A DNA stretch of 64,000 nt from an uncultured bacterium (lineage in GTDB: Bacteria > Verrucomicrobiota > Kiritimatiellia > RFP12 > UBA1067): contig CACWVU010000017.1 in the NCBI GenBank assembly GCA_902764415.1, positions 65,133 through 129,132 on the forward strand, written 5' to 3'. The number at the start of each line of letters is the position of its first letter. Position 1 is the first letter of the stretch. The position numbers were made by a program. This document shows, piece by piece, positions 56,401 through 59,400 of this stretch.

Positions 56401-59400
56401 GCCTTCTCAACTGAAATCTTGTCGACCCCGAACAAGTTCTCCTCTATGTTCCAGCCCGACCAATCCGTTCCTCCGACTCCTCCTCGGCCCTTGAACATCT
56501 CTTGCTTGTGCCAGCTGTAATGTCCAAGGCTGTCCAACATCCCCGTGGTTCTACCTAAGTTATTGCCTTGATACAATTGCAGTACCTCGTCACCTCCGTT
56601 CTGGCCTGTCGAATAAAAGTTCACTGCAGCACCAAGGAGATTTGCGAATCGACCCGGCCAACCAAGATACTTCCTATCATCATTAAGGTCATTGCTGAAC
56701 AGAGTATGCCAACTAGCAGTCCATGAGTTCGTCGGATAATCAACCCAATCAGAGTGGACAAGTTGTGGAACGCGCAACGACTCGTCCGGGTCATACGCCT
56801 CCGCCGGCACGGCCGAATTGCACATGAGATACTTCGACACCTGAAGTCCGTAGTCCTGAATCATCGATGAGACCACCATGTTGCCGAGCGAATGGGCCAT
56901 GACGACCTTTTCCCCGGGAATACGGCTTGTCAGAACCGACGCAAGGTTGACCGCCACGGCGAAGGCGTTGGACGCATTCTGATGGTAGTTGGCGGCGCTG
57001 CCAATGTCGCTTTTCCAGTCGACGTTGTAGAACCTCGCCCTCGATCCAGACACCCACAGCCGCTTGAAGAGAATATCCCCCCAATTCTCCGCATCTGACG
57101 TTGAGACGTTCGCTCCGTGCAGGAAAATCAGTGACTTTGTATACTCCTCGTCCCAGAGCACGTGGGATTCCGTCGCGCGGCCAGAGTTGTCCCCGGACAG
57201 ATACCTCGCGTTGATCCAGTCGTACATTCGCTTCACGGGCTGGATATACATCGGCACCGAATATGAATACAACACTTCGCCGCCGATTCTAATTTCAACC
57301 TTCATTGACACATACTGCGATGTCGCTTCGCAGATCATCAGCCCAGAATCGTCGGAGAAATCCTCAAGCATCTCGCAGGACAATGCCGCGCCGGCAACAG
57401 TCAACTTCGTCAGCTGGGCGGAGGACAACTGACTCCCCGCCAATGTAATTGTGTTCGTCGTCTGTATCGTTCCCGCCCTGCTCCACGGAACGTTGGCGAA
57501 ACAATAGTCAAACGAGTCCGCGCTATTCCACTCCGGCTTGACAATGTATGTGACGTCGTCGCCCCAGGTATCGACGAACGGGGTGAAGTCCAGCGCCACC
57601 GGGAAGAAGTTTATGAGATCGAAAGTCCCGTTCACGACCAAGTCCCTGGTGTTGGGTACAAGGCCCAGTCCCTGGTCTATCCGGTCTCCGCTGAACTTGT
57701 CCTCGTTCACCCAGTAGTAAAACATTCTTCCGTCGAGCCAGGCCGACGAATCGCCGTCGTCGATTGACCCGTCGCGGTTGACGTCGAGTCGCAGCGGCGG
57801 GCGGATGGCGGTGACGCGCTGGCGGGCGACGTCGCGGACGGCCTTGCCGCCGACGACGCCGGCGTACTCGACGACCAGGTCGAACGCGCAGGGCTCGGAC
57901 GCCATCACCAGCATCCTCACGTTGCCCAGCTCCCAGTCGTGGCGGCGGACGAGCCGATACCAGTGCCGGATCGGGAAGAAGCGCTCGGAGGCGCTCGCGG
58001 TGTCCAGGACCGTCTCGGGGTCAGCGTAGTAGTTTTCGCTCCCCGCGAAGCAGACCCTGACGTCGCCGGCGGCGTTCTCCACCGCGACGCGCACGACTCC
58101 GTCGGCGAGGAGGAGGTCGTTCCTGAGGATCAGCGACGCGGCGAGGTATTCGTTGGTCGTGACCGTGGCCGGGAAGCCCAGCGACGGCGAAAGCCGGTTG
58201 TAGACCTCGATCGGCGGAAGGTCGCCGGGCGTGTCCAGCTTGAGGCCGAGAACCGTATAGTCGCGCCAGATGTACCAGCCGCCGTTGGTCGAGAAGCACA
58301 CCGAGGCGTCGTTAAAGCTGCGGCTCGGCGCGACGCCGCGGACAGTCACGTCGCAGGGCCGGTAGGAGATGCGGAAGACGTCGTTCGACTCTAGCACCTC
58401 GAGCCGGCTCGACGAATACGCCGCCGCCACAAAGTTGGACCGGTTGTGTTCCGGGCAGGGGCAGCAGTTGGTGAACGCGCCGACGGGGACGTCGAGGTGG
58501 ACCTGGTCGGCGTTGTCGCCGTAGAGGTGGAGCACCCCCTCGAGCGGCTGGAGAACGACCGCCGCCTCGTACTCGTCCGCAGCCGCCGCCTCTTCGTCGC
58601 CGGTCATCTCGGGAGGGTTGGCGTAGGCGCAGTTCGCGCAGCCGCACATCAAGTTCCATTCGTGGCCGTATATGGCGCAGTCGCACCGGCAGATCCCCGA
58701 CACCGACTCGCTGCAGTTGCACATGACATGGTGCGACTCGCCCTCCGTTACGTCCGGAGACTCGCCGCGCGGCGGCGGCTTGTTGGGGCAGAAGCGGACC
58801 GACTGCGTGTAGTTGGTCTGGCCGGCGAGCCGGTCCGGGTGCCAGACGGTGTAGACGACCGCCCGCTCCTCGTCCGCGTCGAACCTGCCGGTGATCTTCG
58901 CCGCGTCGGGCGGAAGGTTCGTCACCACCACGTCCGCCGAGCCCGAGGACCAGGTCGCCGTCATGTCGGGAAACCCGGTGACGAGCCGGACCCTGACGCT
59001 GCGGTCGCCCAGCCGGTGGATGCAGGGGATCGTGGCGTCGGTGAAAGGAAAGGCGATCCAGCCCGGGTACAGCGACGGCAGCTCGCCGACCATGAAGTCC
59101 TCGGAACTGAGCGCGACGTCGAGTCCGTCCGGTCTGCGCCACCAGAGGCGCTCGCGCCGACCCCTGCCGACCGCGACCAGGAGCGTGTTCGTGGCCGCGC
59201 CGGAGCGCAGGCGCGGCGGCGGCAGGAGCGGGTAGACTCGGTCGCCGACCATCAGGTCGCCCTCGCCGTCGCCGGAGACGCTCACCCTGAGGACGGCGAG
59301 GTTCTCGGTGGGCTGCGGGAAAGCGACGGGGCCGTTGGTGGTGCCGGAGTAGAACACGTGCTCGTAGACGGTGTTGGTGGAGCCGTCGGGAAACGCGAAC

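Follow-up and report, generated by a model that had tools for sequence, protein, structure and literature searches.

A GC step inside a giant gene of a Kiritimatiellae bacterium as the probable trace of the displacement of a C-terminal cassette in a polymorphic toxin/immunity-like locus

The window analysed in the present study, a stretch of 64,000 nucleotides from an uncultured bacterium of the Kiritimatiellae (contig CACWVU010000017.1 of assembly GCA_902764415.1, positions 65,133 to 129,132), contains a giant gene on the minus strand (56055..60419) whose GC content changes abruptly part of the way along its length. We consider that this GC step is, with a probability of about 0.8, a scar left when a C-terminal cassette was displaced in a locus of the polymorphic toxin/immunity-like kind. 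The joint itself is supported as a real recombination joint, which brought in the lipase-like end of the giant protein together with its partner genes, and the locus is best read from its sequence as a polymorphic toxin/immunity-like system that depends on Sec and belongs to an unnamed family, with a putative toxin and putative immunity proteins. It provides an example of cassette displacement resolved to the base, comprising two joints, a relic and a deletion, in which the change-points in GC3 (GC content at third codon positions) match the recombination breakpoints. Kiritimatiellae are common and almost uncultured in rumen and gut communities, and to our knowledge nothing is known of how they compete; we found no paper in the literature linking Kiritimatiellae with polymorphic toxin or immunity systems.

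The source genome is a metagenome-assembled genome (MAG) of 2.6 Mb in 74 contigs, with 64% GC and 92% completeness, and all of the genomes compared are MAGs or metagenome contigs. The giant gene is a 1454-codon open reading frame (ORF) from a GTG at 60419, encoding an N-terminal signal-anchor and TSP3 repeats at residues 270-330; because the database copy of the protein (P0155) has 1447 aa, the likely start is the ATG at 60398. This copy is 100% identical to the window protein, and the identical protein is recorded on five contigs. The partner genes P0002 and P0003, a short ORF and the gene for a small exported protein, P0004, follow downstream, and all of the features mapped below between 53281 and 60419 lie, like the giant gene, on the minus strand.

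The sliding-window GC content was 0.66-0.75 at 57650-60350, 0.50-0.58 at 56150-57650 and 0.43-0.49 at 54050-56150, and rose to 0.64-0.71 at 53300-54050, i.e. over the last two small genes, where the original prediction, made by reading the sequence alone, had also seen a rise. In the giant gene, GC3 was 0.92 for codons 1-876, 0.755 for codons 877-1215 and 0.54 for codons 1216-1454, and GC1 and GC2 fall too along the gene. Both P0002 and P0003 had a GC3 of 0.46 and the next small gene (P0004) one of 0.79, with the backbone genes mutS, uxaA and purA at 0.90-0.97, and the N-terminal ~880 codons are thus indeed as GC-rich as the backbone. Two maximum-likelihood GC3 change-points were located, one at codon 876 (window 57791), the other at codon 1215 (window 56774); the log-likelihood gain for a single change-point was 76.3, compared with 9.5 or less across 500 codon shuffles. 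These data clearly show the GC step that had been predicted at 57450-57800 and place it at the upper edge of that interval, 5 nt upstream of the codons for DVNRDGSIDDGD, around which the transition had been expected. The predicted AT-richer block at ~54060-57450 is likewise low in GC, but it proved not to be uniform, as there are two steps within the giant gene, the second at codon 1215, and the deepest fall occurs only downstream of the catalytic serine.

Alignment with close relatives from independent metagenome assemblies located the joint between the N-part (codons 1-876, 57791..60419) and the C-module. Three variants, P0157, P0158 and P0159 (the last encoded by L031), are 94-100% identical to the window protein over residues 1-870, but 21-41% identical over residues 871-1454, as proposed for a C-terminal cassette swapped at a recombination joint. 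A further three (P0156, P0005 and P0160) are 92-100% identical over residues 1-870 where these are present and 95-100% identical to residue ~1200, then 59-81%, and P0162, the N-part of which is unrelated, displays 22-53% identity over residues 1-870 and 90-94% over the last 250 residues. Codon-aligned nucleotide identity to L031 is 0.92-1.0 through codon 870, 0.62 at codons 871-900 and 0.36-0.5 beyond, and identity at third positions is ~0.93 before the step and 0.27-0.5 after it. At the level of single bases the alignment is near-perfect up to ...CCGCCGCTGC (RPPL), and near-identity with the L037 and L031 variants stops in Joint 1 (57750..57813) at ~57790/57791, right after ...RVTAIRPPL. This break coincides with the GC3 change-point, indicating that a GC3 step inside a gene can locate a recombination joint to within a few bases.

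Beyond the break, both alleles encode a D(V/R)NRDG(S/E)(I/L)D loop. The conserved boundary motif that follows Joint 1 in the window protein, DVNRDGSIDDGD (residues 879-890, 57750-57785), belongs to a family consensus, LvPDY-NRDGxIDxxD...FRFWxN, which is kept in 102 dereplicated members with unrelated upstream sequences. The calcium-binding or dockerin-like loop suggested previously for the transition is borne out in so far as one DxNxDGxID-like loop is present; as the loop is single, with no duplicated segment, and there is no dockerin Pfam match at E<=0.1, it does not qualify as a type I dockerin.

A second discontinuity, Joint zone 2 (codons ~1170-1215, 56774..56910), lies just past the nucleophile elbow of the hydrolase domain described below and coincides with the second GC3 change-point. 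Here, identity to L032, L036 and L035 drops from 98-100% to a patchy 46-91%, and identity to the otherwise distant L033 climbs to 92-97%. The two comparisons are complementary, the window being 98-100% identical to L032 up to codon ~1170 and then 0.46-0.91 in patches, and 0.92-0.97 identical to L033 at codons 1231-1320 and 1381-1440, with 0.64 at codons 1321-1350. The variable C-tip (residues 1201-1454, 56058..56819) alternates on a fine scale between L033-like and L032-like patches, and Joint zone 2 is, as judged from these alignments, a second, more recent mosaic zone within the hydrolase domain.

Phylogenies of the different parts of the protein are incongruent, which accords with the different histories that had been proposed for the N- and C-terminal parts. 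In the N-part tree the window protein groups with P0156, P0005, P0157 and P0158 (support 99), in the proximal-module tree with P0156 and P0005 only (support 100) and in the tip tree with P0162 (support 100). Approximately unbiased (AU) tests, for clades chosen after the identities were seen, rejected a clade of the window protein with P0162 on the N-part data (p=6e-6), the N-part clade on the proximal-module data (p=2e-129) and, on the tip data, both the N-part clade (p=2e-7) and the proximal-module clade (p=4e-4).

The displaced sequence has left a trace downstream of the partner genes. A 58-aa ORF (53880..54056) contains a 153-bp stretch (53899-54051) with 96% nucleotide (94% amino acid) identity to residues 1204-1254 of the P0158/P0159-type (L037) module, starting eight codons past the AHSLGNMLVS elbow of that module; since it matches the L037-type tip, we regard this ORF as a fossil of the displaced older C-tip. 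Compared with L037, a 15.8-kb contig with the alternative module that served as the reference for displacement, a 3.64-kb cassette (window 57695-54051, BLAST alignment end) replaces 0.9 kb and holds the new module, P0002 and P0003, and the C-terminal domain and the two downstream paralogs do form one incoming unit, as predicted. In addition, a 5.4-kb deletion relative to L037 ends the relic at 53899, where it is fused to a point 16 nt upstream of the P0004 homolog's ATG. Since the relic sequence belongs to an intact gene in L037 and is a fragment in the window, the state seen in the window is derived. Longer orphan forms of the old tip persist in L035 (264 aa) and L036 (at least 104 aa), and L035 also carries, behind its own partner gene, an orphan comprising the last 90 nt of a window-type tip and a 100% identical P0002.

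These observations show a conserved, host-adapted N-part (codons 1-876) joined between ...PPL and RLDVNRDGxID to a 578-residue module, the older L037-type module having given way in this lineage to the present one with P0002 and P0003. The replacement left the 153-bp relic of the old tip, and what remained of the old array was then lost in the 5.4-kb deletion. Exchange also acts at a second level, inside the hydrolase and just past the nucleophile elbow, where the Asp/His half of the domain is swapped together with the partner gene.

The C-module is predicted to consist of a beta domain followed by a lipase-like Ser-Asp-His alpha/beta hydrolase. This arrangement is seen in an AlphaFold2 (AF2) model with a predicted local distance difference test (pLDDT) score of 88.8 and a predicted template modelling (pTM) score of 0.91. 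The proximal part (residues 877-1200, 56820..57790, GC3 0.755) takes in the beta-rich domain and, with the oxyanion HG (H1101 and G1102, 57114-57119) and the nucleophile elbow AHSLGN with Ser1177 (56889-56891), the hydrolase's first half, and the C-tip contains Asp1247 (56679-56681) and His1429 in WLHSD (56133-56135). All of these residues are invariant in our alignments and follow one another in this order on an alpha/beta sheet core. Foldseek searches with the model returned generic lipases, cutinases, esterases and PlaB only, and a profile search gave a weak match to pancreatic lipase-related protein 2 across HG...HSLG (E=0.0024). A sequence search of the C-module against the PDB gave no match, neither Pfam nor NCBIfam holds a family for the C-module, the partner or P0004, and in a Pfam scan of the giant protein (P0001) at E<=0.1 TSP3_bac was the sole match. 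The similarity to DUF900/PGAP1 that had been proposed at first reading was not reproduced in Pfam at this threshold; some homologs of the giant protein carry the generic PF12697 Abhydrolase_6.

Using the last 574 residues as the query, we obtained 2017 representative clusters at E<0.001, with the match almost always at the extreme C-terminus of proteins of 574-3407 aa, and the N-part is shared by only ~28 of the 150 best module hits. The family therefore numbers more than 2000 sequence clusters and is without a name in Pfam, NCBIfam or the PDB. From this distribution, the C-module circulates across the Kiritimatiellae on many different N-parts, together with the exported partner gene. The composition gradient recurs across the family: GC3 averages 0.71 over the 500 upstream codons, 0.69 over the module's first 330 codons, 0.58 in the tip and 0.49 in the partner, and of 62 loci 46 have an upstream-minus-tip difference above 0.1. 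In L037, the alternative cassette keeps to this order, at 0.91, 0.80, 0.69 and 0.47 beside flanking genes of 0.93-0.95. As the gradient is family-wide and is repeated in the L037 cassette, the low GC content is not the result of a single import from a donor with low GC; the low GC3 of tips and partners would instead fit a shared pool of cassettes that are exchanged frequently and hosted too briefly to ameliorate.

P0002 (55102..56058), the start of which overlaps the stop of the giant gene, encodes an exported all-beta protein of 318 aa and is the candidate cognate immunity protein. P0003 (54053..55099), a second partner paralog with 33% identity to P0002, is without a cognate tip at the locus, and its likely start is an internal Met directly before the signal peptide MKSSIVVLAV. 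Both proteins carry Sec signal peptides, and their relatives often have lipoboxes. P0002 is modelled by AF2 (pLDDT 92.6) as an all-beta protein comprising a CarboxypepD_reg-like sandwich and a second, larger one; Foldseek, PDB and Pfam comparisons gave no specific structural relative. A P0002-like gene follows the module in ten of ten loci from eight related genomes. Among 80 loci from species-representative genomes, 66 had enough downstream sequence, and 63 of these have a partner gene no more than 300 nt from the stop; the partner family is present in 78 of the 151 genomes of the order. Partner and tip vary together: tips that are 90-94% (L033), 71-81% (L036), 57-64% (L035) and 28% (L037) identical to that of the window are accompanied by adjacent partners with 86, 47, 35 and 25-29% identity to P0002 respectively. 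Extra module pieces are also found downstream (28 in 85 loci), and 22 of the 28 begin past the serine.

Polymorphic toxin systems, as defined by Jamet & Nassif 2015 (PMC4436062) and Zhang et al. 2012 (PMC3482391), are exemplified by Rhs-CT/RhsI, CdiA-CT/CdiI and MafB/MafI. In the present family one N-part is found joined to different C-domains and one C-domain to different N-parts, the conserved motif LvPDY-NRDGxIDxxD...FRFWxN separates the constant from the variable region, orphan modules with a homologous region lie downstream (including the 153-bp relic and the L035 copy of P0002), and the adjacent downstream partner that varies with the tip is a candidate immunity gene. The likeness to these systems thus covers the conserved N-part, the variable C-terminal enzyme, the short boundary motif and the adjacent co-varying partner, and extends to orphan tips with partner genes of their own, displacement of the old tip downstream and tips that are AT-richer than the core. 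AT-richer tips have been noted classically in the Rhs elements of Escherichia coli. The boundary also resembles that of CdiA in being a demarcation motif in the VENN sense. In contrast with the Rhs, contact-dependent inhibition (CDI) and MafB systems, Pfam and NCBIfam searches of the locus revealed no RHS/YD repeats, two-partner secretion (TPS) domain, CdiB, VENN, PxxxxDPxGL or MafB-N. The family differs from known polymorphic toxins in that its N-part, its partner family and its LvPDY-NRDGxID boundary are unnamed here, and in that many of the swaps fall inside the catalytic domain past the nucleophile serine, most of the orphans being half-domains. An Rhs/CDI toxin identity was rejected, as there were no RHS/YD, TPS/FHA or related Pfam or NCBIfam matches; a search of the genome for ShlB/TpsB was uninformative, its control having remained silent.

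Lipid-targeting Tox-ABhydrolase-1/2/3 toxin domains and a class of toxins exported by Sec only have been described (PMC4436062, PMC3482391). As in the polymorphic toxins that depend on Sec and the type II secretion system (T2SS), a signal peptide or anchor is the only recognizable export feature of the giant protein and, as in the Tox-ABhydrolase toxins, its C-terminus is an alpha/beta hydrolase closest to lipases (PMC3482391). However, there is no Pfam match to DUF2235 or any other named toxin hydrolase family, and the partners are not Imm66, Imm69 or SUKH. The Tle1-4 phospholipase effectors of type VI secretion systems (T6SS), with their periplasmic Tli immunity proteins, were reportedly described by Russell et al. 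in 2013. Our locus resembles the Tle/Tli pairs in that a GxSxG serine hydrolase stands next to a signal-peptide or lipoprotein partner that is often duplicated in tandem; this fits an activity directed at the periplasm or membrane, but the protein is a 1454-aa Sec-type fusion that is not associated with VgrG or PAAR and no sequence or fold match to Tle or Tli structures in the PDB was found. Searches of the bacterium's own 92%-complete genome for the T6SS markers PF05943 and PF05638 gave no match, the E. coli control being positive. Since TssC and Hcp were not found and no Tle Pfam family matched, the hydrolase is not regarded as a T6SS Tle, and membership of the Tle1-4 families was rejected given that Pfam at E<=0.1 returned only TSP3_bac. 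Nor does the locus encode a lipase/Lif foldase pair, because P0002 is all-beta in the AF2 model behind its signal peptide; lipase foldases are membrane-anchored, largely alpha-helical steric chaperones. Foldseek searches with both AF2 models returned no Tle, Tli, Lif, named toxin or immunity structure.

Taken as a polymorphic toxin locus, the hydrolase would be a Sec-exported antibacterial lipase or esterase with a target in the envelope, P0002 its periplasmic immunity protein and P0003 a spare immunity gene, and the serine-less orphan tips may be silent alleles that become active only once they are recombined behind the conserved elbow. Several points weigh against this interpretation: toxicity, lipase activity and protection are inferred, the module and its partner match no named toxin or immunity family in Pfam, NCBIfam, the PDB or Foldseek searches, no delivery apparatus was identified (TssC and Hcp, as noted above, were not found), and the clades for the AU tests were selected post hoc.

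We also put forward, at slightly less than even odds, the broader proposal that the Kiritimatiellae have a widespread Sec-dependent polymorphic toxin system of their own. Its lipase-like hydrolase would diversify by half-domain swapping, in which the constant nucleophile half serves as a recombination landing pad and the Asp/His-lid half is exchanged with a new all-beta periplasmic immunity family, the serine-less orphan tips would form a silent archive, and delivery would be achieved via an undescribed N-terminal domain common to many giant proteins of the phylum. If the hydrolase is a toxin, the locus would present a new delivery scaffold, a new immunity fold and an unusual mode of enzyme diversification by swapping half a catalytic domain.

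A different view of the same recombination joints, which would be equally real, is that the giant protein is a variable surface or secreted lipase or esterase used for nutrition or host interaction and not as a weapon, with the partner as its cognate exported inhibitor, anchor or assembly factor and with diversity arising from phage or host-immune pressure. In its favour, the module showed only generic alpha/beta-hydrolase similarity, the N-part has adhesin-like TSP3 repeats, our searches of the genome revealed no secretion-system marker and Kiritimatiellae are polymer degraders. We nevertheless consider this explanation unlikely, as it does not readily account for the tight co-variation of tip and partner, the tandem spare partners, the serine-less orphan tips each with a partner gene of its own, the partner genes present elsewhere without a module or the strain-level replacement by modules with 21-41% identity, all of them hallmarks of conflict systems (PMC4436062, PMC3482391). 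The partner is also all-beta, unlike the helical lipase foldases.

That the joint is an assembly chimera of two co-occurring strains at a shared sequence is very improbable, and this explanation was rejected. The genome is a 74-contig MAG, the 5' 200 nt of the giant gene are repeated in it and the upstream neighbours of the locus differ between assemblies, yet the same junction of N-part and proximal module (100% amino acid identity over residues 871-1000) is found in the three independent assemblies L032, L035 and L036, the identical 1447-aa protein occurs on its five contigs, the L037-type alternative is present in four Logan assemblies and one ENA assembly, and the relic and the deletion joint are clean. 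Least probable of all is a composition step without recombination, due to domain-specific amino acid or codon constraint or to translation pacing in a vertically inherited gene, since, although the GC3 gradient recurs in homologs from many species, identity to strain variants at third positions falls from ~0.93 to 0.27-0.5 exactly at the step, the three trees are incongruent and the partner genes and intergenic DNA are also low in GC, so that variant identities, codon-level breaks and AU tests together refute it.

The distal conserved flank of the cassette region is marked by the gene for P0004 (53281..53883, ATG at 53883), a conserved small exported protein 92-93% identical to the product of a 200-aa gene in L037. 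Four copies of this family are present in the genome (C17, C53, C10 and C14), and in G003, G018, G013 and L033 a P0004 homolog is located directly upstream of the giant gene; this position suggests a conserved accessory role, possibly in export or assembly. Immediately distal to the cassette region are an M.EcoRI-family methylase gene (51798-52838, Pfam E=3e-140, GC3 0.66) and a GmrSD_N-HNH nuclease gene (50507-51622), and the equivalent position in L037 (to 50507-52838) is occupied by a different 812-aa gene with no Pfam match.

Upstream of the giant gene are an altronate/galactarate-dehydratase-like gene and mutS. The island adjoins uxaA in the window and in L036, and lies between a CNNM-family gene and ribBA in L031, L032 and L037 (L037:2427-14707). 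The CNNM/ribBA site is empty in the present genome (C11:44315-44402), where the flanks are contiguous with 96-98% identity and an 87-nt gap. The differing sites may reflect a mobile island or, instead, recombination at its shared 5' leader. For the window island itself, an empty site was also sought via uxaA neighbours in 13 congeners with 1.5-kb flanks, and no conserved synteny was found.

Within the N-part, a Cys/His-rich stretch, CNCSESVSGICRCDCAIYGHEWNLMCGCANC (residues 566-598, window 58625-58723), has no family hit and may be a metal-binding or disulfide-knot insert. The region of residues ~60-330 is common to many giant proteins of these genomes, and the repeat region also matches an open frame of ~10,452 aa with TSP3-like repeats on contig C3 (~39115-55854), which is another giant surface protein. 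Beside uvrA on contig C9 lies a low-GC island (7045-12817) that contains a P0002-family gene at 7045-8115 with no full module there, a 209-aa ORF that ends ...WHHSDICNVAFFYVNF, resembling the His-motif end of the module, and more small exported ORFs; its contents resemble an orphan tip/partner array. On contig C14 (23078-28164), a 1047-aa paralog of the giant protein shares the same 5' leader (MQTWRQRWRFWRH..., 92% nucleotide identity over the first ~200 nt) and is 50% identical over residues 4-221. Its tip has a GC3 of 0.36-0.6, a HEIGH motif and a weak match to Peptidase_M43 (E=0.01), and downstream of it are two low-GC exported ORFs and a P0004 homolog, an arrangement suggestive of another polymorphic locus built on this N-terminal scaffold.

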